A stretch of 36,282 nt of DNA from positions 1-36,282 of the IMG/VR virus record IMGVR_UViG_3300027619_000002; one strand, given 5' to 3'. Shown piece by piece: positions 1 through 36,282 of this stretch. The position numbers were made by a program, and so were the translations under genes. The DNA is from a virus. Every line of letters begins with the position of its first letter. Within the stretch, counting starts at the first letter, position 1. The notes beneath the pieces were generated by a model. The model had not been told where the DNA came from, searched no databases, and worked only from the letters and a program-made list of their open reading frames with translations.

Positions 1-99
1 GGATAATCAATCTGTGCCCGAAACGGGGGTGTCAAACCACTGAAAGGTTGAACAGGTGCGACATTTACAGTCTGAAACCAAGTGGATTTTGAATAGGCT
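1..99. repeat. Terminal direct repeat, copy 1 of 2 (overlap of a circular assembly)
   Basis: Bases 1..99 (ggataatcaatctgtgcccg...ttttgaataggct) are base-for-base identical to 36184..36282, compared by eye over the full length. Confidence 0.95.
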
Positions 100-2025: not shown

Positions 2026-3318
2026 TTAGGAGTTCAGAGTGACGACAACGTTACGACCTGGTGCTTCGGTGTAAAGCTGTAGGTCCCCGACGATTCGGCC
2101 TTCGAATGCATCCGCATCCACTTCGCGAAGGATTTCATTACCATCCTCTGAATCGAAGTAGGGAGCATCACCCATGGTCCCGAAGGTCCATGTATCCATA
2201 TCCAATAGCATTGGATAGCCGTCTGGGGTGTTAATATCAAAGAAAGCCTTGATAGGTCCCATGCTGCCCATAAACTCAATGCCGTTGAATGTGACGCCGC
2301 TTGCATATTTGTTGATTGGCGCAGCGGGTTCTTTCACATTTCGAAGTGAACCGGATGACTCTAGCTCATATTGAAGGTTGAGGTAGTCGTTTGGTGATAG
2401 GAAGTAGTGAGTTCCATGACCATCAGCTTCTGCAATAACCTTCGCGGCCTTCATTGCAGCAGCCTTGGGTGAAATACCCTTTCCTGAAACGCGCCACCCA
2501 GATAGCCACTGCACATCTTGTGTTCGATCAAGACCGAACCAAGGCGTTGAAGTGGGCGCTGAGGTTGGGATCCAGCCTTGGAGACCAGAAACCACTTGGT
2601 TGTAATCGCCGTCAAAGTAGAGATAATCGGTCGAACCAAATGTTGGGCAAGATGTTGCTACTGGAACGTTGAAAGTGAGGATTGCATTATCACGGTCGAG
2701 GCTCGTGACGAGCAGTGGAACAACCTGGGTCCGTTGTGAAGATGCCCCAGTGTTGTCTGCTGAGAACCCGACGTTTAGGTTCTTCTGGAACTTCTTCATA
2801 TCAGCTACGTTGGTTAGCTGAATCTGACTCGTGGTCAGAACTTGTGTTGAGCCAGAGGGAACTGAGAGTGTGGCGGTCCCACCAGGAGCAGTAAGGATCT
2901 GGCCAACTGAACCAACCCCAGAGCCCCAGAGATAGATCCCCTGGCGACGCTTCCAGACGTTGAGCGCCATTTTGACTTGGCGTTCGAGAGCCGGCAGAAT
3001 TGCGGCTTTCTTATTCTGGGCCCGGCGGAGAAGCTGGCGTTGAATTGAGAACAGAGAGTAGTAGATTACGGGTGTAATGTCAAACTTAGACTCAACCGAA
3101 GGCGACTTGTTTCGCTTGGCGTTTGAGAACTGAGCTGACGCACCACCAGTGTAACCATAGCCAACTGCAATATGGCGGATTATTTCGTGGAATGTGGTAT
3201 CCTTAGCCACTTGGCCGTAAAACGATTGGTTGATGGTGTACAATTCATCATAAATGTCAGTCTGCGGCCAGATTTCCCGGAGTAACGCAGAGTAAGAGGT
3301 GGATGATGCAGCAGTCAT
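2026..3318 (-). CDS. Major capsid protein (430 aa)
   Basis: Gene order is TerL, portal, scaffold, then this ORF. The size is typical of HK97-fold or P22-type coat proteins. No sequence search was possible. Confidence 0.7.
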   Translation of the reverse strand: MTAASSTSYSALLREIWPQTDIYDELYTINQSFYGQVAKDTTFHEIIRHIAVGYGYTGGASAQFSNAKRNKSPSVESKFDITPVIYYSLFSIQRQLLRRAQNKKAAILPALERQVKMALNVWKRRQGIYLWGSGVGSVGQILTAPGGTATLSVPSGSTQVLTTSQIQLTNVADMKKFQKNLNVGFSADNTGASSQRTQVVPLLVTSLDRDNAILTFNVPVATSCPTFGSTDYLYFDGDYNQVVSGLQGWIPTSAPTSTPWFGLDRTQDVQWLSGWRVSGKGISPKAAAMKAAKVIAEADGHGTHYFLSPNDYLNLQYELESSGSLRNVKEPAAPINKYASGVTFNGIEFMGSMGPIKAFFDINTPDGYPMLLDMDTWTFGTMGDAPYFDSEDGNEILREVDADAFEGRIVGDLQLYTEAPGRNVVVTLNS

Positions 3319-3472: not shown

Positions 3473-3493
3473 AAGTGTAAAATTAATCAAATG
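3473..3493 (+). repeat. 21-bp direct repeat AAGTGTAAAATTAATCAAATG, copy 1 (contains the HNH start codon)
   Basis: Identical 21-mer at 3473..3493 and 3885..3905, read directly. Both copies end in an ATG that starts an ORF. Confidence 0.9.
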
Positions 3494-3892
3494 CCAACTA
3501 ACGCGGCAACTAGACGTTATCAACTTACCATTGCTTCCAAAATGAATCAATACAACGCTAAATCATATGCTAAAAACACTGCAAAACGTCGGGCTAAAGG
3601 ATATGCTTGGGAGATCAATAATCCTATGAATCGTAGGGCTATAACTCTTAGAAGACATGGTCTCACTATTGAAGAATATGATATTATGTTAGCAGATCAG
3701 AATGGACTTTGCAATATTTGTCTGGACCCACCCAAAGATGGGAAGAGACTTAACGTAGATCATGACCATGCAACTAATAAAATCAGGGCTCTGCTTTGTG
3801 ATAGATGTAATCGTGCACTTGGTATGTTCAAAGACGACGCCATGTTAATTCTGAAAGCAGTCGCTTATTTGATTAAGCATTCGAAAGTGTAA
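3491..3892 (+). CDS. HNH nuclease of the endonuclease VII type (133 aa), free-standing homing-endonuclease-like
   Basis: Motif CNICLDPPKDGKRLNVDHDHATNKIRALLCDRCNRALGMF matches the CxxC...DHDH...LC..CN..LG signature of the phage endonuclease VII / HNH family. Confidence 0.85.
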   Translation: MPTNAATRRYQLTIASKMNQYNAKSYAKNTAKRRAKGYAWEINNPMNRRAITLRRHGLTIEEYDIMLADQNGLCNICLDPPKDGKRLNVDHDHATNKIRALLCDRCNRALGMFKDDAMLILKAVAYLIKHSKV

Positions 3893-3905
3893 AATTAATC
3901 AAATG
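3885..3905 (+). repeat. 21-bp direct repeat AAGTGTAAAATTAATCAAATG, copy 2 (contains the HNH stop and the next start codon)
   Basis: Identical to 3473..3493. It spans K-V-stop of the HNH ORF and the ATG at 3903. Confidence 0.9.
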
Positions 3906-4166
3906 TGGCCTTGGACAAGTCTAGGTGACGAAAAACAAGAACTATTAGAAAAATATTGGGTTGAAATGGCCAAAACACAATCTGGCTCATATAATGAAAT
4001 TGAAGTGAAGGAAGCGCAGAAGCTAATAGAACAGATTTTAGTTGAAATGGACGATAATTATGCCAAAACAATGGGCGTTGAATGCCCTCATGGACGTAGT
4101 CAGAGGAATTGTCAAGATCCAGATTGTGCGAATCTATATGTTGTTAGTCAAGTACTCGAAAGTTGA
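3903..4166 (+). CDS. Small Cys/His protein, member of the C-terminal VL-tail family (87 aa)
   Basis: Ends ...ECPHGRSQRNCQDPDCANLYVVSQVLES-stop. The ATG lies inside repeat copy 2. Confidence 0.6.
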   Translation: MWPWTSLGDEKQELLEKYWVEMAKTQSGSYNEIEVKEAQKLIEQILVEMDDNYAKTMGVECPHGRSQRNCQDPDCANLYVVSQVLES

Positions 4167-4192
4167 GATTCGTAAGAAATGATGGATCCCGA

Positions 4193-4516
4193 ATGGCTAT
4201 AATCATCTACGTTCACACTCATAAGGCCACGGGGAAGCGTTATGTGGGCCAGACTTCGCAAACGATGCAAAAGCGCTGGCAACAGCACATTCGTCAGGCT
4301 CTGCGATTCACACTTAAGTGGCGGTCGCGCTTTCACTTTGCGCTCAAAGACTATGGCATTGATGGATGGACCAATGAAGTCATTGCAACATGTGACAGCC
4401 CTCGTGAAGCCGACCGCTTAGAGCGAGAATGGATTAATACATTCAAATCAGATGATCCTCGTTATGGATTCAATACTCAGCCCGGGAATGCGAAGAACCG
4501 CATTCTTGATCCGTAA
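4193..4516 (+). CDS. GIY-YIG nuclease (107 aa from ATG 4193; an in-frame TTG at 4163 is the ORF-track start)
   Basis: IIIYVHTHKATGKRYVGQTSQTMQKRWQQH followed by READRLEREWI fits the GIY...YVGqT...R..qH...E core of the GIY-YIG family. Confidence 0.8.
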   Translation: MAIIIYVHTHKATGKRYVGQTSQTMQKRWQQHIRQALRFTLKWRSRFHFALKDYGIDGWTNEVIATCDSPREADRLEREWINTFKSDDPRYGFNTQPGNAKNRILDP

Positions 4517-4559
4517 ATATTAAAGTTATTAACGTATCAGGAATTAAGGAGATACGAAA

Positions 4560-5024
4560 ATGAGCCAGAAATCTGACGAAAAGAAGCGACGCAAGGCCGA
4601 GAAGCAAGCACAAGTTAGAACTAATGATGCTTACACGGCTTGGATATATGACGAAAATGCGTTCATGGAACTTCTGTTCGGGTCAGAAGATTATGAGTTC
4701 GACTATTCGAAAACTCATCACATGTTTCAGGAATATTTGCGTAATAAGGGATTCGGAAAGCTTCTTTTTCTAGTTATCTCCAAAGGCACGCCCACCGAAA
4801 AACCCCCGATGAACGAACGGGATGCGTTGCAATATATTTTTGCGAACGCCGCCGACAAAGGCGGGAACGTCGTCTTCGCTTGGTCCATCACCAATCAAGT
4901 CCTCGTAACAGAAAATATGTCTTTCAGTCCTGACTACAGGACGACCGTTGATACCATCCCTGGAGATGATCAGAATGTCATCATCAATTCTAAAAGGATC
5001 GCTCATCCGAATCCTTTACACTAA
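4560..5024 (+). CDS. Hypothetical protein (154 aa), last gene of the rightward island
   Basis: ATG preceded by AAGGAG 8 nt upstream. Basic N-terminus (KKRRKAEKQ). No motif recognised. Confidence 0.6.
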   Translation: MSQKSDEKKRRKAEKQAQVRTNDAYTAWIYDENAFMELLFGSEDYEFDYSKTHHMFQEYLRNKGFGKLLFLVISKGTPTEKPPMNERDALQYIFANAADKGGNVVFAWSITNQVLVTENMSFSPDYRTTVDTIPGDDQNVIINSKRIAHPNPLH

Positions 5025-5120: not shown

Positions 5121-6167
5121 TTAGCTAGCTTTCCTAGCAGCCTCCATTGTCAAAGCCACTCGTTCTTTGTGAGTTAGTGGCTTTGCGGCGGCCCCATTAG
5201 TCTTTGCTGGTACTACTACCTTCTTTGGATCAACTTTGGCCACAACCTTGGTTTTATCCTCAGTTGTAGTTGCAGCCGCTTTCTTTGCAGGTAGTCCACG
5301 TGCGACTAGACGTTTGTAACGCTCATCTTCCTGAGCCCATTCATCTACGGCATCTGCTACAGCTTCCAAATCAAAATCACCATTTGGCTTTCGTGGCGTC
5401 TTACCTAAAGCATTTAATTTGTTACAAATGTCATCAGCAACTTTCCGTGCTTCGGCCCTCGAATAAATTAGACTCGAAGCCTCATATTTTTCATCTTGCA
5501 TCAGTTTATCAAAATTGATGTATATGGCTTCTGTTGCCTGTGTGGCCTCTCGCGCTTCACGATCCTTTTTTACAGCCGCCGCTACATCAGCTTCCGTAAG
5601 TGGTTTGGCATCTGTCGTAGTCCCAGTCTGTTGACGTTGCCATTGATTCTTCGCGTATTTCTTGAAATCTTCTTCCGTCTTTAGACCTAGATGATCGAAT
5701 CCATACTCGAAAAACTTAGTTGGATCATTGAAAAGGGCTTCTAGTTCTTTGACTCTTGCCTCAGCCTTTGACTGACGATCCTTCGCTTCATTGAGCATCG
5801 TCTCTGCTGCTTGTTTTTCAGTTGCGACTTTTGACTCTAACTGGCGTAGTTCAGTCTTTTGACGAGCTAAAGCTGCAAATGCCTTGGCATCAGCCTTTTC
5901 AGTCTCAGATTTCGGTTTCTCAGCGGATACCTTTTCTGGCGTTTTGGCTGGGGTTTCCTGTGTTTCAGAAGTATCCGCGGCTACCTCAGCCTCTAAGGCC
6001 GCCTTTGCCTCGGCTTCGCCTTCGGCCATAAGTCGAGAATGGAGATCCGCTTTTCTAGCTTGATGCGAAATAAACTTACCCGATTCATCCCGAGCAACTG
6101 CTGTTTCTGTTACTGGGGTCTCCGCGGTTTCGACCGCTACTTCTGGAACTATTACTTCGTTTGCCAT
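5121..6167 (-). CDS. Scaffolding protein (348 aa)
   Basis: Lies between the portal and capsid genes. Strongly Ala/Glu/Lys-rich with coiled-coil character (AEGEAEAKAALEAEVAAD, KTELRQLESKVATEKQAAE), typical of phage scaffolds. Confidence 0.65.
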   Translation of the reverse strand: MANEVIVPEVAVETAETPVTETAVARDESGKFISHQARKADLHSRLMAEGEAEAKAALEAEVAADTSETQETPAKTPEKVSAEKPKSETEKADAKAFAALARQKTELRQLESKVATEKQAAETMLNEAKDRQSKAEARVKELEALFNDPTKFFEYGFDHLGLKTEEDFKKYAKNQWQRQQTGTTTDAKPLTEADVAAAVKKDREAREATQATEAIYINFDKLMQDEKYEASSLIYSRAEARKVADDICNKLNALGKTPRKPNGDFDLEAVADAVDEWAQEDERYKRLVARGLPAKKAAATTTEDKTKVVAKVDPKKVVVPAKTNGAAAKPLTHKERVALTMEAARKAS

Positions 6168-8577: not shown

Positions 8578-8772
8578 CTAACAATCCAGAACATATTTGA
8601 TTATGCAATTAGGGTCTAGACAGTCTTCTTGCTCAATTTGATGTTCACAAAATCCACACATCATTCGTTTGTATTCAGTTTCATTAATTAATCCACAATT
8701 CAGCCATTCTTGGAGGATTGTGATTTGGGCTGATGGCGACAGCACCTTGTTGAAGAAGAGTTGTGTTTTCAT
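8578..8772 (-). CDS. Small Cys protein, member of the C-terminal VL-tail family (64 aa)
   Basis: Ends ...CGFCEHQIEQEDCLDPNCIIKYVLDC-stop (CxxC-x9-C-x3-C). Its ATG overlaps the TerL stop (ATGA). Confidence 0.6.
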   Translation of the reverse strand: MKTQLFFNKVLSPSAQITILQEWLNCGLINETEYKRMMCGFCEHQIEQEDCLDPNCIIKYVLDC

Positions 8773-10433
8773 CTTGATCTATCTCCGGGGGTCCAATTTT
8801 GCCTTAGGGATTGGTCATTTCGCAATTGGGCTTGGCGACGACGCTCTTGTGCTTCTTTGACTTCAATCGCATCCGCTTCCGGGGTTCCAACTTTAGGTTT
8901 TGGAGCCAATACCAATTGTCCAGATTGTTGGAAGATAGAAAGAACAAACGCTGATACTATATCACCATGCTCCCCGGTTGGCCATTTTTGCAAAATGATT
9001 GTTATATTCCCACCCGAGTTTTTCCTCCAAGTGACTTCTTTTAACTGACGCAGTAATCGTGGATGATTTGGTATTTTGACCAACCCTTCCCTCATCAGGG
9101 TCCGAGTTTTGATGAATGATTCAGCAGGCGACATTGGGGCATCTACGAATCCTAGATTTAGCTTGCCAATTACCTCTATTGCAGTTTGTTTATAATGCTG
9201 GTCGGCCATAAAATAACTTCCGCCGTGACGGCGTATTTCTTCACCAAACTCACGACAAACTTCACTAGGCTGTAATGCTGCACCTTCTTGCGGTTTCTTC
9301 TCTATAATCTGGGCGACTCTGATAATCCCTTGTTTTAGATGCGAAACCACCAACGCACTGCTATTCTTGGTAAACCCGAGGTCAATACCCGCCATAACCC
9401 TGTCACCCGGTTCGGGGAGGGTTGGAAATTGATAGGTCGAATCAACACTCTTAGATAATACGATCGGGTCAAAGAAAGACTCAGTTCCAGCGCCCATGAA
9501 CTGGGCGCCGTATTCTCGTCGGGCATTTTCTGAATCCTGCTGATATTGTTGTTCAACCACTTGTCGTAAAATCGGACTATCTCTGAAAACCAGAGTGGGG
9601 CTGTGCATTGCGAGACATGTAGTCCCAAGCTTAAGGGTTGGAGGCAACCCGGCACATTCCGGATTCGGATGACACTGTGAAAAGAAATCGTATAACAACC
9701 CCGTTTGAGCCCAGGGTGTAGATACGATGATAATCTGAGATCCAGGAAGAACAGCGCGAATAGTAATAGCATCAAATTGTTCCTGATCATTTACAACACT
9801 TCCGGCATCTCTGAAAAATGCCGTCTCTTCTAAAGCTGCTCCAACTAAGTTCGAACCTCGTCCCGTTCGTCCCTTTCCCGACGCGGCTCTAACAACGATT
9901 TCGACAGATTTACCATCTCTAGCAAACTCAATTGATTCAGCTGCATCAGCTTTCCCGACCACCATCTTCAAAAGTTCAGGATGATTTCTGACTGCACCTT
10001 GGATAAATCTAAGTGGTTTACAAGCCTGATCCATATCTGGCGCTATGATTGGTGCTGAGGCTACTTCACCAGGTGCCAAATCGTCTAAAGGAACAGTAAG
10101 TGCCAGATGCAGGATCCGTAGGGCAATTAATACGTATGTCTTACCAGCTCTAGCTCCGGCCACAGCAACGAATACGCGACGCTGTTCATCAGTAATAGAC
10201 TCAATATCACCAAACAATTTGCGAGCTAATTCCCGATCGGACCCTCTCAAATCTTCGGGTTGAACGCCATCGTATGCGATTGCACATGCAACCAGTTGCG
10301 CACGACTTAATTTAACACCTATTTGGTCACAAAACTCTAGGAAACTCTCAGCAACCTTGAACTTCGATTTGGTATCAAACTTCAATCCACCAAGAAGATA
10401 ATCATTCGGGTCAGCTTTTTTCTTATTTGACAC
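8769..10433 (-). CDS. terL: Terminase large subunit (554 aa, GTG start)
   Basis: Walker A is VAVAGARAGKT. RNase-H-like nuclease acidic motifs are present: AGIDLGF, FMADQHY and EHGDIVSAF. It lies immediately upstream of the portal module. Confidence 0.85.
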   Translation of the reverse strand: MSNKKKADPNDYLLGGLKFDTKSKFKVAESFLEFCDQIGVKLSRAQLVACAIAYDGVQPEDLRGSDRELARKLFGDIESITDEQRRVFVAVAGARAGKTYVLIALRILHLALTVPLDDLAPGEVASAPIIAPDMDQACKPLRFIQGAVRNHPELLKMVVGKADAAESIEFARDGKSVEIVVRAASGKGRTGRGSNLVGAALEETAFFRDAGSVVNDQEQFDAITIRAVLPGSQIIIVSTPWAQTGLLYDFFSQCHPNPECAGLPPTLKLGTTCLAMHSPTLVFRDSPILRQVVEQQYQQDSENARREYGAQFMGAGTESFFDPIVLSKSVDSTYQFPTLPEPGDRVMAGIDLGFTKNSSALVVSHLKQGIIRVAQIIEKKPQEGAALQPSEVCREFGEEIRRHGGSYFMADQHYKQTAIEVIGKLNLGFVDAPMSPAESFIKTRTLMREGLVKIPNHPRLLRQLKEVTWRKNSGGNITIILQKWPTGEHGDIVSAFVLSIFQQSGQLVLAPKPKVGTPEADAIEVKEAQERRRQAQLRNDQSLRQNWTPGDRSR

Positions 10434-12882: not shown

Positions 12883-13211
12883 TTTCCCTCAAATCCTGGT
12901 TTATTTGGCGCTCTTTTTGGTCCGGTATAACCAGGTGGCGCTTCGATGTTCGCGCCATATTCCTTCTTGCGCCAATCCATTTGAGTCCCGTCGTTATGTC
13001 GCGATTGTTCCATTGCCGACCTAGCATCACGGTGCCAAGCCCCTGTGATGGTACCACCACAGGATTTATCATGAAATTGTTGCGAATAGACACCAGAATC
13101 TGTTTTACGTGTGAGTTTGGGAGCATCACATCGTGGGCAGCGCTCAGCTACGAAACAGACTCTCTTCCAGTCATCAAGTTCAAACTCTTGATCTCCCTCA
13201 AACCAACTCAT
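12879..13211 (-). CDS. Hypothetical Cys-containing protein (110 aa from ATG 13211)
   Basis: CPRC...SCGG suggests a zinc ribbon. ATG 13211 overlaps the upstream stop (ATGA). Confidence 0.5.
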   Translation of the reverse strand: MSWFEGDQEFELDDWKRVCFVAERCPRCDAPKLTRKTDSGVYSQQFHDKSCGGTITGAWHRDARSAMEQSRHNDGTQMDWRKKEYGANIEAPPGYTGPKRAPNKPGFEGK

Positions 13212-13393
13212 TGTGATAACACCCATTTAACGAGACACTCGGGATGACCACATTCCTCCACGTTTGAAATAACGGCTTTTTCACTTTCCTCAGGGAAAAT
13301 ATAGCACAACCCAATTTTTCGGTTAAGACTCCTGATTACTTCTCGTTCTTGAGTTAATTGGGAACGACGAACACGTTCTGCATGGTCAATCAT
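13208..13393 (-). CDS. Small Cys protein, VL-tail family (61 aa from ATG 13393)
   Basis: Ends ...NVEECGHPECLVKWVLSQ-stop. The ATG overlaps the upstream stop (ATGA). Confidence 0.6.
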   Translation of the reverse strand: MIDHAERVRRSQLTQEREVIRSLNRKIGLCYIFPEESEKAVISNVEECGHPECLVKWVLSQ

Positions 13394-13656
13394 CGATTCA
13401 TCACCCAATTCACAACACACTCTGGTTGAGTGCAACGACAACCTGGTAGATGTGGTCCTTTATCAATATTATATCCCCATGCCAGTATTCGGTCAGCAAC
13501 TATTTGATAGTCTGCTCCTTGTGGCCGAGAGTAACCCAGATCATTTAATCTTCTTGATACATAGTCATCATTGGATTCGTCATCCCTCCGCGTTGGATCT
13601 GGTCCATCCTGGTATTGGATTCCAACTGCATTCAAATATTGAGGTCTGACTCTCAT
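13390..13656 (-). CDS. Small Cys protein, VL-tail family (88 aa)
   Basis: Ends ...HLPGCRCTQPECVVNWVMNR-stop. The ATG overlaps the upstream stop (ATGA). Confidence 0.6.
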   Translation of the reverse strand: MRVRPQYLNAVGIQYQDGPDPTRRDDESNDDYVSRRLNDLGYSRPQGADYQIVADRILAWGYNIDKGPHLPGCRCTQPECVVNWVMNR

Positions 13657-13925: not shown

Positions 13926-14341
13926 TCTGATGCCCAGATGTACGAACCTTTGCTCCAACCGTGGAAATCGGGGGTCCAGTGTGTTATTACTGGTCTAGAT
14001 CCGATTCCAGCCAATTTCAGCATTTCGGCTGCCAGCCCGTGCCTCCGGAACTTGGATTCAACATATACATAATTTAATGTCTTTGAATTATGACTGATAA
14101 ACCCGATTAAGCTACCCTCTGACTCGGCCACATAGATGTTATCTTGTAATGTGGCAATTCGCTTGGATAATAGAGCTTCCCAGATTTTCTGGTCCATATA
14201 TAGAGTAACAAGACGAGATGAGTCACGGGCTTTATAGACTCGTGCTGGACGACAATCCTCTCGATTCGAGGATCTTATCCATGCCGCGTAAACAAATGGC
14301 ATCTCGTCTGGTCTGACCAGACGTAGACTAAAGTTACTCAT
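13922..14341 (-). CDS. GNAT-family N-acetyltransferase (139 aa)
   Basis: LIGFISHNSKTLNYVYVESKFRRHGLAAEMLKLAG contains the acetyl-CoA-binding motif A (R-x-x-G-x-A) in the expected beta4-alpha3 context. Confidence 0.7.
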   Translation of the reverse strand: MSNFSLRLVRPDEMPFVYAAWIRSSNREDCRPARVYKARDSSRLVTLYMDQKIWEALLSKRIATLQDNIYVAESEGSLIGFISHNSKTLNYVYVESKFRRHGLAAEMLKLAGIGSRPVITHWTPDFHGWSKGSYIWASE

Positions 14342-14546
14342 CTAATACCGCCTGACACAGACGTTCTCTGGCCTGTTCACAAATTATGTCGGCCATCACT
14401 TGTGATGGATACCAGCCGAAGACGCTGGTAGCTCGCTTTATCTGGCAAAAATGACATTGCCATTCGAACTTATGGTTATCAAAGTCGTTATGCGATCTTG
14501 ACCAGCAATGCCCCCCTTTGCCGAAAATGGCCTCATGTCCAATCAT
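14334..14546 (-). CDS. Small Cys/His protein, loose member of the VL-tail family (70 aa)
   Basis: HCWSRSH...CHFC...ICEQARERLCQAVLDE-stop. Overlaps the GNAT start by 8 nt. Confidence 0.55.
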   Translation of the reverse strand: MIGHEAIFGKGGHCWSRSHNDFDNHKFEWQCHFCQIKRATSVFGWYPSQVMADIICEQARERLCQAVLDE

Positions 14547-14995
14547 TCGTCCACCTCTGTCACTTCGCTAATTTCCTCAGGAGGAGGCGCCGAGAGAAGT
14601 TTTCGCTTCTCTTCTTCACACTTGGCTTCCAATTCATTAATCCGGGTGAGTTTCTCACTGCTGGTGAGTTTCTCCCACTCCTCGCGGGGACCTTGATTTA
14701 ATTGCAGCTTGGTTGTATCCGACCAACGTCCTGACGCTCTGCGTTGCAGCCACCAGGCAGAACACACCCAATTCTTAATTGAGTGCTTCTTGATGTTCTT
14801 GACGTGATATGCCTCAGCTTTCATTTCAGCATCAATAACATCCGCCTCGAACTTGGGATCTTGCAACCGCCATAAACGAAATGTGGACTCATTGATCCCA
14901 GCATCAGCAGCGGCAATCTTCCGATAATTACCTGCAATTAGCGATGCGAGTAGCGCTTTCTTGATAGCATCTGGATTTGAGTGTGGTTTGCCCAT
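14543..14995 (-). CDS. Helix-turn-helix DNA-binding protein resembling small terminase subunits (150 aa)
   Basis: IAGNYRKIAAADAGINESTFRLWRLQDPKFEADV (HTH) followed by NWVCSAWWLQRRASGRW. This resembles the HTH plus W..LERR pattern seen in many proteins annotated as TerS. Recognised by eye only. Confidence 0.4.
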   Translation of the reverse strand: MGKPHSNPDAIKKALLASLIAGNYRKIAAADAGINESTFRLWRLQDPKFEADVIDAEMKAEAYHVKNIKKHSIKNWVCSAWWLQRRASGRWSDTTKLQLNQGPREEWEKLTSSEKLTRINELEAKCEEEKRKLLSAPPPEEISEVTEVDE

Positions 14996-15192
14996 TACTC
15001 ATCCAACACGTGAGCGACAACACAATCTGGGTGATCACACTCTGCTCTTTTCACCATTTGAGAATGATGCTTAAAGCAATAAACGGTCGTTCCCATTATC
15101 TTACCCCAAAGGCTACCTGAATATAATTGTGCTTGAATGTCACTTTGTGGCCATAATTCCTGCAATACACTCGAAAAATCCGTAGGCTTCAT
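14995..15192 (-). CDS. Small fusion protein: capsid-protein N-arm-like segment plus VL-tail Cys module (65 aa from ATG 15192)
   Basis: MKPTDFSSVLQELWPQSDIQAQLYSGSLWGKIMGTTV aligns with capsid residues 9..45, SYSALLREIWPQTDIYDELYTINQSFYGQVAKDTTF. Ends RAECDHPDCVVAHVLDE-stop. The ATG overlaps the upstream stop (ATGA). Confidence 0.6.
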   Translation of the reverse strand: MKPTDFSSVLQELWPQSDIQAQLYSGSLWGKIMGTTVYCFKHHSQMVKRAECDHPDCVVAHVLDE

Positions 15193-15374
15193 TGATTCAA
15201 CACGTATGCACAAACGCATTCCGGATTTGTGCATTGGGAAATAGGTCTGTACATGGATCTTCCTTCCTCTTCATGATAACACCAATTCATATCAGAATAA
15301 TCCTCCCATCTAATCTTGAATACACCACCTAGCTTACCTGTGCCATCCCGTAACCAGTCATATAGATCGGACAT
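15189..15374 (-). CDS. Small Cys protein, VL-tail family (61 aa)
   Basis: Ends ...WCYHEEEGRSMYRPISQCTNPECVCAYVLNQ-stop. Confidence 0.6.
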   Translation of the reverse strand: MSDLYDWLRDGTGKLGGVFKIRWEDYSDMNWCYHEEEGRSMYRPISQCTNPECVCAYVLNQ

Positions 15375-18981: not shown

Positions 18982-19361
18982 ATTGTAATCACCAGCCCAA
19001 CTCGAACTCTTGTATCAGTTGTCTCTCGCCAGCCTACCAAAATGCTGTTGCATCATTGCAACAGCAATCCGCCGCCTCACAGTATTGGAGCCATCAGATG
19101 ACTTTGTCAAATCATCCTCAGACAAATCAGAATCTAGTTGACCAAGCGAGACCAACACCCATTAGCCCCGGACTCGGGGAGCAGTATGACCAAGCAATTC
19201 GCCAGATCATCATCGAAGAAAACCGATTAAAATTTGTCGAGACTAGACTCGCAGAGTGTGGTCACAGTCTTGCCAAAGCTGTGAAATATGCGGATGACCT
19301 GTGGGCACAATTGGTCGCTGAGAGAGAATTGAAAATCGTTCGAGAGGTTCTAGATGAATAA
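18978..19361 (+). CDS. Hypothetical protein with a VL-tail ending (127 aa from ATG 18978)
   Basis: The ATG overlaps the upstream stop (ATGA). The N-terminus is MNCNHQPNSNSCISC. Ends ...LKIVREVLDE-stop. Confidence 0.55.
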   Translation: MNCNHQPNSNSCISCLSPAYQNAVASLQQQSAASQYWSHQMTLSNHPQTNQNLVDQARPTPISPGLGEQYDQAIRQIIIEENRLKFVETRLAECGHSLAKAVKYADDLWAQLVAERELKIVREVLDE

Positions 19362-19527
19362 CTATTGGCTCACAGATGAGTGTCCTCTCAGCCTCCAAGT
19401 AGAGATGAACAAGATCATCCAAGATATTCAATTTGCCCATCATCAATGGGACGCATGTATTCACAATAGACTTCTTGGTAAATGTGAGGACGAAGATTGC
19501 ATCGTCCAGTTCGTATTACAGGAATAA
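19354..19527 (+). CDS. Small Cys protein, VL-tail family (57 aa), below the ORF-track size cutoff
   Basis: Manual translation: MNNYWLTDECPLSLQVEMNKIIQDIQFAHHQWDACIHNRLLGKCEDEDCIVQFVLQE-stop. The ATG lies inside the last codons of the upstream ORF. It replaces the antisense ORF 19243..19464. Confidence 0.6.
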   Translation: MNNYWLTDECPLSLQVEMNKIIQDIQFAHHQWDACIHNRLLGKCEDEDCIVQFVLQE

Positions 19528-20592: not shown

Positions 20593-20817
20593 TTATTTAG
20601 TGTGAGATTTTACAACCGCCAACACCGCAACATCTAATACTTTCTTAGCTCCTTCGACACCGAACTTCTGTTCTAGATTATGGAGTAACTTGCGTTTCGT
20701 CGCGGATGAGAGAGTGAACTCTTGTTCTATCTCAGTGTTAGATACAGGTTTCCATAAGCCATATTCACGTTCGATTTCATCCGTGAAATCCTGAGGCGAC
20801 CAAACAATTGGGATCAT
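20593..20817 (-). CDS. Hypothetical protein (74 aa), last gene of the leftward unit; possible fibre assembly factor
   Basis: The ATG overlaps the fibre gene stop (ATGA). The product call is by position only. Confidence 0.5.
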
Positions 20818-23800
20818 GCGATCCTCACAACATTGAAATTACATGTTTCCCATGGAGGAGGGTTTTGATAAAATGTATTATAACTTTGGAATATAATGCT
20901 TTCAGCTGCTCCATAAATGGAAATAATAGCCCCCGCGGGGCAATATACTATACAACTACCATTGGCAACTACTGTCCAAAGAGTTGTGGTACCAGCTGTT
21001 GGCCCCGCGGATGAGAGAGCTGTTACCACACCATTATATGCAAATACCCCGTTTATCCCAACATAAAAATATTGTATCCTAGTTGAAGCTGTTGCTGTAT
21101 CACCACCAGGTGTTATCTGGAAATTAACTAAATAATAACCAGCATTCGTCACTGTTATTCCAGTATAACCTATAGTCATATTTGACACCACCCCCGTGGC
21201 AGTACCAGTCCACCCCCCGATTATGGCGCCAGTCAATCCACCCGAGTTGGGAAGTGTAACACCATATGATTGTCCAAATGCCTGTGCGTATCCTGGTGTT
21301 ATACCTCCTCCGCCACCTCCGGCGGGTCCGGTGACTCCTTGAACTCCTGTAGCTCCCTGTGGACCTGTCGCACCTTGTGATCCGTTAGATCCGGCCGGAC
21401 CTGTGGGTCCGGTTACACCAGGGGATCCTTGAATACCCTGGGGCCCTGTGGGTCCATTTGAAGGACCCGTAGCCCCCTGTGGGCCAGTAGCACCTTGCGC
21501 CCCGGCAGACCCTGCCGGGCCAGTTGGCCCGGTTACACCAGGGGATCCCTGTGGACCCTGACTGCCATTTGCGCCATTAGGTCCAGTTGCCCCTGTTACG
21601 CCAGGTGATCCTTGAATACCTTGGGATCCATTAGCGCCGGCCGGGCCAGTTGGTCCTGTGGCCCCAGTGACACCTTGGGGACCTGTTGGCCCACCATAGG
21701 GGCCTGTAACACCAGCTGGCCCGGTGGGGCCCATAGCCCCCTGCACACCAGATTGTAATGTGACAGTCAAATAGGCGTTATTTACTACTCCGCCATTTTG
21801 AGCGGTGATGGTTCTGAGTGTTACTACATCATTCGCATTAAGTTGTTTGAGACCTTGAACAACTAGCAGCTGTGTTGCTGATGTATTAGTTAGAGATAAA
21901 TCTTGTGCTTGGGTTCCATTAATATAAACCGCCAATCCTGAGACATATAAGCTACCACCATCAGTTAATCCAACAATTAGATACGTTCCGGCTTGAAGAA
22001 CTGTGACTGATGAATTACTCGTGTTTAATGTAGTCTGATTCGATGGACCGCTGGCATTGAATGGAATGGTTACTGGCCCGCCACCTGATGGAACACTGAC
22101 GCCAGATCCCCATAATCCACCAAATACTCCGGTAGCACCGGCGGCCGGGCCAGTAACTCCCTGTGCACCAGTAGGTCCTTGTGGTCCAGTAGGACCAGTT
22201 GAACCTTGCGGTCCAGTAGATCCTGCCCCAGCCGGGCCCGTGGGACCTGTAGCCCCAGTGACCCCTTGGATACCTTGTGGACCCTGAGGTCCAGTAGATC
22301 CTGTGACGCCAGGTGACCCTTGGGGACCAGTAGATCCAGTGACACCCTGAATACCTTGTGATCCTTGGGGTCCAGTAGATCCTGTGACACCAGGTGATCC
22401 TTGTGGTCCGGTAGATCCTGTGACACCTTGAATACCTTGTGGTCCTTGGGGACCGGTAGATCCTGTGACACCAGATGACCCTTGTGGTCCGGTGGCACCA
22501 GTAACCCCATTGATTCCTTGTAAACCAGTAGCTCCTTGTGGACCTGTAACACCTTGGGGTCCTGTAGGTCCACCATAAGGGCCTGTAACACCTTGAATGC
22601 CTGTGGCCCCTTGCGCACCCGTGGGACCAGTTGCCCCAGTGACTCCTTGGATACCCTGTGGTCCCTGAGGCCCAGTAGCACCAGTCTGACCTTGGGGTCC
22701 TGTGGGCCCAGTGACTCCTTGAACACCTTGTGCACCAGTGGGGCCTGTAGCACCAGTGATCCCTTGAATACCTTGTGGTCCCTGATTCCCTTGGGGCCCG
22801 GTTGCTCCTCTTGCACCAGTGGGACCCGTGGCCCCAGTTAATCCTTGTGGGCCCGTAGGTCCACCATAAGGTCCTGTGACACCAGCTGGACCTGTAACAC
22901 CTGTTGCACCTTGTTTTGAGCTAACATTCCATACAGTGAATTGAACTTGTGACAGCGTAGCCAGTTCTGATTGTTCGTTATTTACTAATAGCGTTAGAAC
23001 ATCGCCAGAGTTTAATGCCAACAACCCAGTAATAGCTATAGTTCCTTGATCTGAATGATCAAAACCAACTGGGCCCCAAATTAGATTTGGTTGAGGTACA
23101 CCATTTTTAAGAACTTGTAATATTAACTGAATATCAAATCCATATTCATATGTTATGCCACCTGTTACACTAACTCCATATATGTCAGTCTGATTTACAG
23201 TAATAGATGAATTAGTGCCGGATACTAATGTAACATTTGTTGATATACCAGAATTACTGAATGCTACAGTTCCAGTATAACTCCCTGTTGCTGTTGTTGA
23301 GGTGGTTGAGTATAACTGTCCGTATGCGGGAGATATTGTGCCAGTTCCTAATGGACCACCAGGACCGGTAGTTCCTTGAATACCTTGTGGCCCTGTGACT
23401 CCACGTGCACCAGTAGGTCCTTGAATACCTTGTGGCCCTGTGACACCTTGTGGCCCAGTTGGCCCACCATATGGGCCTGTGACACCGGGTGAGCCTTGAC
23501 TTCCTTGTAATCCAGTTGGACCTTTACTTCCTGTTGGTCCTTGTAATCCAGTTGGACCCTGTGGTCCCGTAACCCCCTGCACACCCTGTAATCCAATACC
23601 ACCTACACTGACAACAGAGAAAAACGCAGAATCAATGACAATCCCTGTAGAAACGAAAGATTCTAATGATTTACCTATTGCTTGAACATTAAAAACATCA
23701 CCACCTGTCGCACTAGCTAAAGCAATGACAGTTGTAGTCGTGAATTGGCTGGAATCTTCATCAAGTATACCCGTATCAGTCTGAGACGTAAGTAATAATG

Positions 23801-25232
23801 TGCCATTCTGATAAATCCCATATGTAACGCCTACTTGATTATCTTCTCCACCAGGATATGCATATTGCCATGAAATCACACATTTGATTTCAACTATTGC
23901 CGAAGCATCAATAGTTATACTATCACTAGGTCCGTGTGTTAAATATCCAGGAGAACCAAGATACCTGAATGGGACTGTGACGAGATTCGGCGCAGTAGCA
24001 CCGCTCGTGAGTGTGAACCCTGGATACGCTGGCCCACTTGCGCCAGCACCACTTGGAACATCATAGAGAAACCCATATACTTGTACACCACCTGTGATGC
24101 CAATAGCACCTGGTGGCCCTTGGGGCCCGGTTGTTCCTGTTATTCCAGGAAATCCCTGACTCCCAGTAGGACCGACCGGTCCTTGGGGACCCTCAGTTCC
24201 ACCTATTGCTATTACGTTAAATGATCCATCTTTGATTGTGAGTGATGCATTCGATCCAGTGACCGAAGCCATGACCTGGACTTGATCGAACCCATTCAAA
24301 TAATGTTGAGTTGAAATGGGAAGTATTGCTTGTGACGATGGACCGATTAATGTAACGGTCTCAGCTAATACTGATCCGTTGACTGCAACAGATAACGTGA
24401 CGTTGTTCCCAGTTATTACAGATTCTCCAATACTAACAGTTATTAGATATGGTCCCCCGACATTGGAATCAATTCCAATGCTATTAGCAATAGTCCCGCT
24501 CGTGCAAAATGTGTTTTGGAATAAACCAACATGATCCCAAATCAGAACTTGTGGAGATGTGGCTGCCTTAATTGTATTAACAGTTGTTGATCCGTAATTA
24601 ACTAATTGTCCATAAGCTTGGGTTGCTGCACCTGGACCAGTAGGTCCTGGTAAGCCAGTAGGTCCCATGGGTCCGCCAGCGGGGCCCGTAGCCCCCATAG
24701 GACCTGTATATCCAGTAACACCTTGTGGACCTGTAGCACCTTGTGCTCCGGTTAATCCCTGAGGTCCAGTTGCTCCGGTTATACCAGCGGCTCCTTGGGG
24801 TCCAGTAGCACCCTGAGGTCCTGTAGATCCAGTGACCCCTTGAACCCCAGTTGCTCCCGTGACTCCCTGTATACCCTGGTTCCCTTGGGGTCCAGTTTGG
24901 CCTTGTGGTCCGGTGGGGCCTGTTGCACCCGTGACCCCTTGGACACCCTGAGGGCCTTGAATCCCCTGTGCCCCAGTCTGACCTTGGGGTCCTGTGGGCC
25001 CAGTTACACCAGTTAATCCTGTAACACCAGCAATTCCTTGAATACCCTGAGGCCCAGTAATACCCTGTGCCCCAGTCGGACCAATACTTCCTTGAACTCC
25101 GGTTGAACCCTGAGGTCCTTGGGGTCCAGTGGCCCCTGTGGGTCCAGGAGGGCCTCCGAAAGCCCCTGTGGGTCCCTCGGCCCCTGTGGGTCCTTGTAAT
25201 GAAATAAATGCGCCGCCACGACGACTAAGCAT
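20814..25232 (-). CDS. Collagen-like tail fibre (1472 aa): five Gly-X-Y tracts alternating with five C1q/TNF-like globular domains
   Basis: Residues were counted from the translation. Collagen tracts are aa 14-201, 347-381, 546-629, 775-1035 and 1162-1310 ([13 protein letters not shown]-type triplets). Globular segments are aa 202-346, 382-545, 630-774, 1036-1161 and 1311-1472. These share AYGQL-type starts, ITV..G.Y[LG][IV], [VI]NG, and GDV[LF]/NDVVTL/FDQVQV motifs, as in C1q and BclA C-terminal domains. Confidence 0.8.
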
Positions 25233-35231: not shown

Positions 35232-35719
35232 TATGGAACCACCACGATAAACATGCCAGCTGTGAACTCGCTATTTGGGGTCACATATGCATATGTATTA
35301 TCAAAAGTGACAGTCCCAACTATATTTCCAAATCCTGAGGAAGGGATCGACCAGAAAGCAATAAGTGACGCCGTCTTTAGATAATGAGGGATTTGATAAT
35401 TTGTTCCGACCTTGAACGTAATCGGAAGTATTACGGTGCCACCTGCTCCAAACGGAAGGCTTCGAGACCCCACTGTGGCTTGTTCTACATCATTCATGAA
35501 TAGATTGGCCCATTGAATTATAGTGGCCAGACTCGCACTCTGTGGATCTAATCTTCGACGAAGAAATGGGACAGCAGTTTTCGTTAATAGTGTAGCAGAT
35601 GAGGTTCCGGCATTTTGGACATAAGTCCAACTTCGCTGCAAAATCGTGGGTTGCGCTTGAATGTTAGGATTAGGCATTAAACCCGCCACGTCTTCGACCA
35701 CGACCGAACCATTGGTCAC
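35231..35719 (-). CDS. Hypothetical tail/adaptor-module protein (162 aa from GTG 35719, or 148 aa from ATG 35677)
   Basis: Its stop overlaps the nozzle-like gene start (TAATG). ATG 35677 overlaps the end of the upstream gene by 8 nt. The start is unresolved. Confidence 0.5.
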   Translation of the reverse strand: MTNGSVVVEDVAGLMPNPNIQAQPTILQRSWTYVQNAGTSSATLLTKTAVPFLRRRLDPQSASLATIIQWANLFMNDVEQATVGSRSLPFGAGGTVILPITFKVGTNYQIPHYLKTASLIAFWSIPSSGFGNIVGTVTFDNTYAYVTPNSEFTAGMFIVVVP

Positions 35720-36282
35720 GAGTCATACTGACTTTGGCTGGTCTTGATGCATCACGGCTTCTGAGTTGGCCAAGCATGTCTGATTTCAGACGCAGCATTT
35801 CTGCCCCTGCACGATCAGATTTCTCAAACTCCTCAATTTTGAGGCAACAACTGCGGATTGCGAACTGAATTGCATAATCTTCATATCCAGCAAAACCATC
35901 TAATTGATCTGTGTCATTAACTAATGGTGTTGGTCCAAAGATATAATCGACCTGAATTGTGATTGCCCCTGTTGGAGGCGGAAGTAAACGAATCTTCCCT
36001 GTATCAGAACCATCAGCTGTGGTCTTTCCAATTAATCTGTATTTGAAAGGCTCACCGGAGAAACCTGGCGTCGCGCTTAAGAGATATGACTCTTCGGCCA
36101 GTGTGAACTTCTCCATATCACGATAGTCAGCCCCATTTATTTGTGAGGCGATCCGTTTTAGTTGATAAAAGTCACTCGGAATCGGATAATCAATCTGTGC
36201 CCGAAACGGGGGTGTCAAACCACTGAAAGGTTGAACAGGTGCGACATTTACAGTCTGAAACCAAGTGGATTTTGAATAGGCT
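35670..36282 (-). CDS. C-terminal part of the junction-spanning virion gene (continues from 263..1)
   Basis: The reading frame stays open from 36218 up to the window edge (…AYSKSTWFQTVNVAPVQPFSG-LTPPFRAQIDYP…). It joins the frame starting at ATG 263 once the 99-bp overlap is collapsed. Confidence 0.7.
   Translation of the reverse strand, partial: AYSKSTWFQTVNVAPVQPFSGLTPPFRAQIDYPIPSDFYQLKRIASQINGADYRDMEKFTLAEESYLLSATPGFSGEPFKYRLIGKTTADGSDTGKIRLLPPPTGAITIQVDYIFGPTPLVNDTDQLDGFAGYEDYAIQFAIRSCCLKIEEFEKSDRAGAEMLRLKSDMLGQLRSRDASRPAKVSMTRDQWFGRGRRRGGFNA
36184..36282. repeat. Terminal direct repeat, copy 2 of 2
   Basis: Identical to 1..99. Confidence 0.95.

Follow-up and report, generated by a model that had tools for sequence, protein, structure and literature searches.

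A chimeric gene upstream of terS

The window analysed here is the whole 36,282-nt stretch of IMG/VR virus record IMGVR_UViG_3300027619_000002. Its element of interest is a small gene on the minus strand (14995..15192, stop codon included; 65 aa) that joins a segment resembling the N-terminal arm (N-arm) of the resident major capsid protein (MCP) to a zinc-knuckle-like tail. An exact 99-nt terminal direct repeat (1..99 and 36184..36282; unit 36,183 bp, 45.8% GC) marks the window as a complete, circularly assembled genome; apart from the N-arm of the MCP itself, the genome therefore holds a single N-arm copy, that of the small gene.

Alignments show that the predicted product of this gene, MKPTDFSSVLQELWPQSDIQAQLYSGSLWGKIMGTTVYCFKHHSQMVKRAECDHPDCVVAHVLDE, is a genuine chimera of two modules and nothing else. 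The N-arm-like module covers residues 4-38 (15079..15183, minus strand; TDFSSVLQELWPQSDIQAQLYSGSLWGKIMGTTVY) and is defined by the significance of its alignment and by the evidence for selection described below. The Cys/His zinc-knuckle-like tail module covers residues 35-65 (14998..15090, minus strand; TTVYCFKHHSQMVKRAECDHPDCVVAHVLDE) and is defined by alignments and a profile. Together, the two modules tile the whole protein; in the composite alignment, they share a D/T-x-x-aromatic position and overlap there by a few residues. The protein has zero matches in Pfam and PHROGs. Its AlphaFold2 model is of low confidence (predicted local distance difference test, pLDDT, 58), and the helices predicted in it at residues 6-13 and 17-25 mirror the MCP helices at residues 6-16 and 19-26.

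The gene is closely packed between its neighbours. Its ATG overlaps the stop codon of the upstream gene at 15189..15374 (ATGA), and its own stop codon shares bases with the start codon of the next gene downstream (TAATG), which encodes the terminase small subunit (terS; 14543..14995, minus strand; phrog_4102, E 2.9e-15). These junctions show that the small gene lies directly upstream of terS and, as read from the overlapping codons, is translationally coupled to it. Public gene calls contain a longer, 79-aa form of the protein that begins at the ATG at 15234 (P0052). On sequence grounds the 65-aa start is favoured, because its ATGA-coupled junction, "...AAT CRA TGA", recurs in the other tandem pair of genes with the same tail (13390..13656/13393), and the start at 13393, that of the second gene of this pair, is used by public gene call P0175. 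A Shine-Dalgarno sequence is absent before the window minus-strand genes checked, including those for the MCP, the portal and the scaffold, so that this signal does not separate the 65-aa from the 79-aa start. Most window genes are joined via ATGA or TAATG overlaps. Taken together, the overlaps and the absent Shine-Dalgarno sequences suggest a host with weak Shine-Dalgarno usage.

The capsid protein and its N-terminal arm

The first-pass annotation took the 430-aa protein encoded at 2026..3318 (minus strand) for the capsid protein, and structure prediction bears this out: an AlphaFold2 model built on 39 of its 51 metagenomic homologues (pLDDT 86.9; predicted template modelling score 0.84) adopts the HK97 fold. 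The best Foldseek matches of this model are to the capsid of phage SU10 (7z48/7z45/7z46, E down to 2.7e-10), with HK97, lambda, D3, SPO1 and other capsids ranking next. Among 220 PDB matches at E<=1e-3, the best 50 are nearly all phage capsid chains, together with a few encapsulin and satellite-capsid chains. No match to the protein was found in Pfam, PHROGs or GenBank phages. The gene order, terL, portal, a 348-aa Ala/Glu/Lys-rich protein and MCP, is kept in relatives, and an SU10-type adaptor is encoded at 35670..36218; along with the fold matches, these features identify the 430-aa protein as the MCP.

Residues 1 to ~45 of the modelled MCP form helices at 6-16, 19-26 and 32-36 that precede the E-loop strands and the spine helix (104-129), and in the model this segment is the N-arm. 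The segment shared with the small protein falls within it, in agreement with its earlier assignment to the capsid arm. The motif Y[SD]ALL[RK]E[IL]WPQxDIxDELY, located in this arm, is the most conserved stretch of the MCP family; it is nearly invariant across the 51 metagenomic relatives and is kept even in family members that are only ~40% identical overall. The N-arm and the scaffolding protein are discussed in the literature on P22, SPP1, phi29 and D3. Published procapsid structures back the broader assumption that the N-arms of HK97-fold coats touch the scaffold; in phage 80alpha, the N-arm helix alpha1 is bound by a C-terminal helix-and-hook of the scaffold (PMC5644958).

The shared segment is homologous to the capsid N-arm

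The similarity between the small protein and the capsid N-terminal arm, the central observation of the first-pass annotation, is real. BLASTP of the small protein against the 430-aa protein returned 36.2 bits (E 1e-8), with 14/37 identities and 26/37 positives; residues 4-38 are aligned with MCP residues 7-43 (3190..3300, minus strand), N-terminus to N-terminus and in register. The Smith-Waterman comparison with shuffled sequences that had been proposed as a check gave a score of 77, as opposed to 26.1 +/- 3.9 for 2000 shuffles, none of which reached 77 (maximum 49); the corresponding Gumbel P is 4e-8. When all 219 window open reading frames (ORFs) were compared with one another by BLASTP, this was the strongest pair besides overlapping-frame and internal-repeat artefacts (E 1.1e-6), and the similarity thus survives multiple testing. 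The 1472-aa gene at 20814..25232 (minus strand) contains internal repeats, and overlapping-frame ORFs there match each other (e.g., 22536..22841 versus 24795..25016, E 1e-5). A 46-column profile of 39 MCP N-arms also matches the small ORF, at E 5e-5 among the 31,234 stop-to-stop ORFs of all fetched sequences.

The count of 10 identities in the 19-residue core given earlier is correct. The accompanying figure of ~75% DNA identity is roughly right for the best stretch, where 80% is reached over only 25 nt, but does not extend beyond it: identity falls to 59% (39/66) in the 22-codon core and to 47% (49/105) when all 35 aligned codons are counted. This low DNA identity, as well as the presence of the same small protein in JGI, Logan and ENA samples, with the gene intact in independent samples, upholds the view that the segment is no assembly duplicate. 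Real homology is thereby confirmed by the alignments, and the segment of the predicted small protein is a diverged paralogue of the MCP N-arm.

The copied segment has been kept under selection

Within the 22-codon core, the two genes agree at 14, 16 and 9 of the 22 first, second and third codon positions, respectively. Agreement at third positions is near random, which indicates that synonymous sites are essentially saturated while the peptide pattern persists. We compared this divergence with a neutral simulation, in which the MCP N-arm codons were mutated down to the observed amino-acid identity (14/35). The observed BLOSUM62 sum is 89, compared with 59 +/- 9 in the simulation (P 0.0013), and 12/13 bulky hydrophobic positions are kept, compared with a simulated 8.1/13 (P 0.011). 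The observed nucleotide identity is 49/105 versus a simulated 70/105; the copy has therefore accumulated far more nucleotide changes than its amino-acid divergence requires. W-P-Q-x-D-I is retained exactly. These comparisons show that selection, as judged from the codons, has preserved in the N-arm copy the amphipathic, aromatic-rich pattern of the MCP arm.

Among known MCP N-arms, none shares more than 16/37 residues with the copy. The copy scores about equally (69-82) against all MCPs of the resident clade and lower (46-50) against those of a distant clade, a pattern which implies that it arose inside the resident clade and has since evolved separately. It also carries a 2-residue deletion, unlike all MCPs.

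Genomic neighbourhood

The small gene and terS both lie inside a long leftward array, near its start. This array runs from a divergent region at ~16.85-17.04 kb through genes for a GNAT acetyltransferase, terL, the portal (a weak phrog_332 match, E 0.0017), the putative scaffold and the MCP. The structural operon, likewise leftward, continues across the junction of the window ends. The rightward operon begins with a primase/helicase-like protein. The first-pass annotation placed the small gene in an early region. That placement is not established, given its coupling to terS in a morphogenesis-oriented leftward operon, and the neighbourhood is at least as much one of packaging and morphogenesis as an early one. 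A promoter and terminator scan returned counts at chance level.

The 348-aa, Ala/Glu/Lys-rich protein encoded at 5121..6167 (minus strand) had no Pfam or PHROG match. From its composition and its position between portal and MCP, we infer that it is the scaffold and the partner of the N-arm. An alignment with five relatives shows its C-terminus to be conserved (NGAA..LSHKER.A..), and by analogy it may correspond to the scaffold element to which the N-arm helix of the coat is bound in 80alpha (PMC5644958). In 80alpha-type HK97-fold systems, the coat protein from which such an arm derives is encoded after portal and scaffold, and the same layout is found here, with the scaffold being putative.

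The tail module defines a family of eight small proteins

The remainder of the small protein is, as first reported, a Cys/VL-tail module, although the module is more widespread than was described. It comprises ~32 C-terminal residues and is common to eight small window proteins, which are encoded on both strands and in several regions. Its pattern consists of an aromatic residue, C-x(1-2)-H, 7-12 residues, C-x2-P-[ED]-C, two hydrophobic residues, one variable residue, another aromatic residue and a C-terminal V-[LM]-x-x. In the small protein itself, the pattern reads C-x2-H, 8 residues and C-x4-C, and the tail profile matches its ORF with 62.6 bits.

A 61-aa paralogue is encoded immediately upstream of the small gene (15189..15374, minus strand; P0173). 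Three further paralogues were assigned by tail alignment on the minus strand: P0175 at 13208..13441, with a likely start at 13393 that would give 61 aa; an 88-aa protein at 13390..13656; and the 70-aa P0180 at 14334..14546, whose Cys pattern is degenerate. The 64-aa P0174 lies between terL and the portal gene (8578..8772, minus strand). On the plus strand, an 87-aa paralogue is located in the homing-endonuclease island beside the MCP 5' end (3903..4166), and the 57-aa P0176 in the rightward replication operon (19354..19527). The other seven N-terminal parts are unrelated to one another and to other window proteins. The idea of a family of baits, in which each paralogue would mimic another phage protein, was accordingly rejected. 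A role of the tail as a DNA-level repeat or recombination linker was also rejected, as the DNA copies are divergent, with many synonymous differences.

In a HMMER search of 1.84 billion representative proteins, the tail profile matched only the window's own paralogues and two repeat proteins, P0179 and P0181, each consisting of 5-6 tandem units of C-P-H-G-R-x-K-x2-C-K-E-P-E-C-I. The spacing C-x(1-2)-H, 7-12 residues, C-x4-C is found in these two proteins and in six of the eight paralogues; the deviating ones are 14334..14546, with a degenerate C-x8-C, and 13208..13441, which has no upstream His. The repeat units resemble the tail in their Cys/His spacing and P-E-C-hydrophobic core. They differ in being arrayed in tandem, whereas each phage protein has a single unit, which forms its very C-terminus and ends in V-L-x-x. 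The tandem-unit proteins support the view that the tail is a single putative zinc-knuckle unit, which may bind metal. Pfam and PHROGs contained no match for the tail paralogues, nor did Pfam for P0179 and P0181, and the tail profile found nothing significant among PDB sequences. The C-terminal end of P0181 resembles, by eye, an HNH-type nuclease motif, with no support from Pfam.

Mobile DNA at the 5' end of the MCP gene

Two distant members of the MCP family carry group I introns (RF00028) inside the N-arm-coding part of the gene, at 9697-9933 in L163 (68.8 bits) and at 2862-3102 in L164 (63.6 bits). The insertion sites differ, being ...DIYDL|LYEN in L163 and ...VWP|QSDI in L164. Such introns explain the gene calls that seemingly lack an N-arm (P0042, P0043, P0045 and P0047). 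Exon 1 of the L163 gene is directly preceded by an HNH_3 gene. In the window, a plus-strand island (3491..5024) between the putative scaffold and MCP genes flanks the MCP 5' end and contains an endonuclease VII-like gene (3491..3892) and a GIY-YIG gene (4163..4516). A 154-aa ORF is also present in the island. Relatives have other homing-endonuclease-type genes elsewhere in the head module (HNH_3 in L004, Endonuclease_7 in L007).

As read from these insertions, the DNA coding for the N-arm is a site that attracts mobile elements. It is plausible that repeated breakage and repair at the MCP 5' end was the source of an ectopic 5' MCP fragment.

The chimera is confined to one lineage

Outside the window, we found the chimera only in a near-identical genome from another sample (L005), which has both the small gene and the tail module and matches the window at 99.95% identity over 15 kb. 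Two of the seven differences between L005 and the window fall in the 198-nt small gene, at 15125 and 15148 (binomial P for such clustering ~0.004); one is synonymous at P15, and the other, L23S, affects the conserved L-Y of the motif.

Five relatives with MCPs 63-83% identical (L002, L003, L004, L006 and L007) have neither a second N-arm nor a tail-family protein in the regions fetched; those of L002, L003 and L004 span the equivalent stretch upstream of terL, and those of L006 and L007, anchored on the MCP gene, reach only ~10 kb upstream. None of the regions fetched from relatives yielded a terS homologue, and consequently no positional analogue of the small gene can be defined. The head module has a mosaic make-up: relatives by MCP are up to 83-98% identical, but the best non-identical TerL reaches 60% (window 8769..10433), and L006, with an MCP of 83% identity, has a different, Terminase_6N-type TerL.

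Motif scans of IMG/VR, JGI metagenomes and GTDB genomes with hand-made DNA patterns did not find the pairing of an MCP with a second, small-protein N-arm, yielding MCP genes and chance matches with profile scores of at most ~19-23 bits. The chance matches, which were discarded, comprised LytTR regulators, glycosyltransferases, dehydrogenases and a phosphoesterase. A word-indexed protein search for orthologues returned only the near-identical P0052, and megablast and tblastn against GenBank phages gave nothing for the window or the MCP. The first-pass annotation had named a lack of conservation in related genomes as a refutation, and such a lack is largely what was seen: the pairing did not appear in the five phages, IMG/VR, the JGI metagenomes or the GTDB genomes. 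The searches show the chimera and its module to be confined to one lineage so far.

One further protein with the N-arm motif came from a 1.5-kb soil contig (L032, 308-865, plus strand). It carries the motif at its C-terminus (YGNRLREIWPQSDIYGELY), where 14/19 residues are identical to the MCP core (25.5 bits), and ends in ...IAYGNRLREIWPQSDIYGELYGQAK, but is otherwise unrelated. The protein has no Pfam or GenBank-phage match and no IMG/VR relative, and is a singleton in the protein collection; its DNA is not a copy of that of any MCP compared. An RHH-like gene follows. A C-terminal motif of this kind would fit a portable peptide, and we take it as a hint in that direction.

Discussion

The small gene can be described, from its sequence, as an assembly-interface peptide duplicated into an accessory protein with a putative function. 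In 80alpha, P22, SPP1, phi29 and D3, the N-arm is known only as a part of the coat protein, whereas here a second, free copy is mounted on a zinc-knuckle-like module. Reasoning by analogy with such systems, we lean tentatively, and without calling it probable, towards a role in which the free N-arm docks on the usual partner of the capsid N-arm and serves as a low-copy tether or passenger. The free arm would still occupy the surface normally taken by the capsid N-arm. By analogy with 80alpha, the likeliest such surface would be the conserved C-terminal helix of the putative scaffold; alternatively, it could be the N-arm groove on the coat subunit. Either way, the zinc knuckle would become tethered to assembling procapsids, and the protein might act as a low-copy accessory in assembly or packaging, or as a capsid-targeted passenger of the kind known from the T4 capsid-targeting sequence (CTS). 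Since the placement and coupling of the gene are terS-like and coat protein is required in hundreds of copies, we consider a tether or passenger of low copy number likelier than bulk titration.

Several observations weigh against such docking. The acidic MCP residues D24, E25 and D40 have become A, Q and T in the copy, and in P22 acidic residues of the N-arm form the scaffold contact, so that these losses count against the proposed role; the nearly invariant MCP residues A11 and K39 are changed as well. Any small folded protein needs a hydrophobic pattern, and the selection signal is thus no proof that the same partner has been retained. The structural model of the small protein is of low confidence. 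Among the other seven tail-family proteins, none has an N-terminal part that resembles a structural protein, and by comparison with these unrelated N-termini that of the small protein may be arbitrary. Moreover, the absence of the gene from five relatives and, the near-identical genome aside, from every large collection scanned indicates that it is dispensable for this capsid type.

An origin and function unrelated to the capsid deserves serious consideration, if with some doubt. A captured 5' piece of the MCP gene would here serve as a generic helical N-terminus on one member of an expanding zinc-knuckle family, the pieces having been fused by recombination in a fast-turning-over block of small genes, and function would reside in the zinc knuckle, for example in binding nucleic acids or host proteins. 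Consistent with this, the eight paralogues share their tail only, the family and the chimera are restricted to one lineage, with the gene dispensable in relatives, and the fusion is seamless at the D/T-x-x-aromatic position where the modules overlap. The MCP 5' end is also a mobile-DNA hot spot, with the endonuclease island here and group I introns in relatives, and two of the seven single-nucleotide differences from the twin genome lie within this one short gene. A generic helix, however, needs no W-P-Q-x-D-I motif, which is retained exactly; the substitutions are far more conservative than expected from neutral decay, and the alignment runs in register from the N-terminus.

Unlikely, in our judgement, is a more general version of docking, in which the N-arm core, L-x-E-hydrophobic-W-P-Q-x-D-I-x3-L-Y, would be a portable docking peptide that SU10-like phages graft onto unrelated proteins, N-terminally in the present case and C-terminally in L032. 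Such a peptide would load proteins into, or tether them to, assembling HK97-fold procapsids via the scaffold or the N-arm site, and would amount to a natural cargo-loading tag of tailed-phage capsids that derives from the coat.

The proposal of the first-pass annotation that a free N-arm could titrate scaffold or block assembly corresponds to a bulk competitor or dominant-negative arm, which would titrate the scaffold or cap the coat and thereby delay assembly, or else disrupt that of related co-infecting phages and so bring about superinfection exclusion. This is unlikely. In its favour are the homology and selection evidence given above, the near invariance of the N-arm motif in the MCP family, by which a mimic could act broadly, and the position of the gene close to where the leftward operon begins; yet coupling to terS probably keeps expression low relative to coat, a dominant-negative peptide would equally harm the assembly of the phage that encodes it, and relatives have no such gene. 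Some bacterial defence systems sense phage capsid proteins, and an N-arm mimic could in theory occupy or block such sensors as an anti-defence decoy. The lineage-specific, accessory character of the gene would suit this role, but we consider it very improbable: no homology to defence or anti-defence proteins turned up, a faithful copy of the trigger would be expected to activate the sensor rather than block it, and nothing in the data points there. Finally, chance similarity, an assembly artefact or a non-coding ORF, to which the shortness of the ORF and the differing start used by gene callers (79 aa) might point, is effectively refuted by the alignment statistics and the rank of the pair as the best true one in the genome, by DNA identity of only 47-59%, by the intact gene in independent samples, by operon packing with overlapping start and stop codons, and by conservation that is stronger at the protein than at the DNA level.

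Known assembly-interface mimics differ from the small protein in instructive ways. CpmB of SaPI1 copies a C-terminal motif of the scaffold (PMC5644958), and Ccm of SaPIbov5 is a full-length coat homologue (PMC8569155). The likeness consists in the duplication of an assembly-interface motif, or of a whole coat homologue, into a second protein, which in CpmB and Ccm competes at the interface of coat and scaffold. Whereas CpmB and Ccm are satellite-encoded, the small protein is phage-encoded and copies the coat N-arm alone; in the all-against-all BLASTP, it shows no similarity to the 348-aa putative scaffold, as a CpmB-type protein would. The internal proteins of T4 are targeted to the scaffolding core by a short, common N-terminal peptide (PMC3012670). 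Like the T4 CTS of IPI-III, the assembly-related peptide of the small protein is located at the extreme N-terminus. The CTS is, however, common to the internal proteins, whereas here the peptide is present in one of eight tail-family proteins and is shared with the coat; the N-arm motif was found in none of the other seven nor in other window ORFs. The T4 CTS is removed by a prohead protease, and no such protease turned up in the window proteins that were compared with Pfam and PHROGs. In encapsulins, a short terminal peptide docks cargo inside the HK97-fold shell, near the N-terminal helix and P-domain; these cargo-loading peptides have other sequences, are usually C-terminal and are not derived from the shell. 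The small protein therefore belongs to none of the CpmB, Ccm, T4 CTS or encapsulin-cargo families, and a targeted full-text literature search found no description of a free copy of a coat N-arm.

Capsid assembly relies on short interface peptides, namely the N-arm of the coat, the C-terminus of the scaffold and peptides for cargo or targeting, and the copying of such peptides is known from satellites that hijack helper phages and from the internal proteins of T4. If the docking role holds true, a phage-encoded, selected free N-arm on a zinc knuckle would represent a different solution. It would also offer a testable handle on the N-arm partner in an uncultured group of SU10-like podoviruses whose capsid has no Pfam or PHROG annotation, and could serve as a natural tag by which proteins are loaded into HK97-fold shells. 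Should the gene instead be unrelated to the capsid, it would be a clean example of how an ORFan originates, in which a conserved 5' segment was captured at a locus also prone to introns and homing endonucleases.

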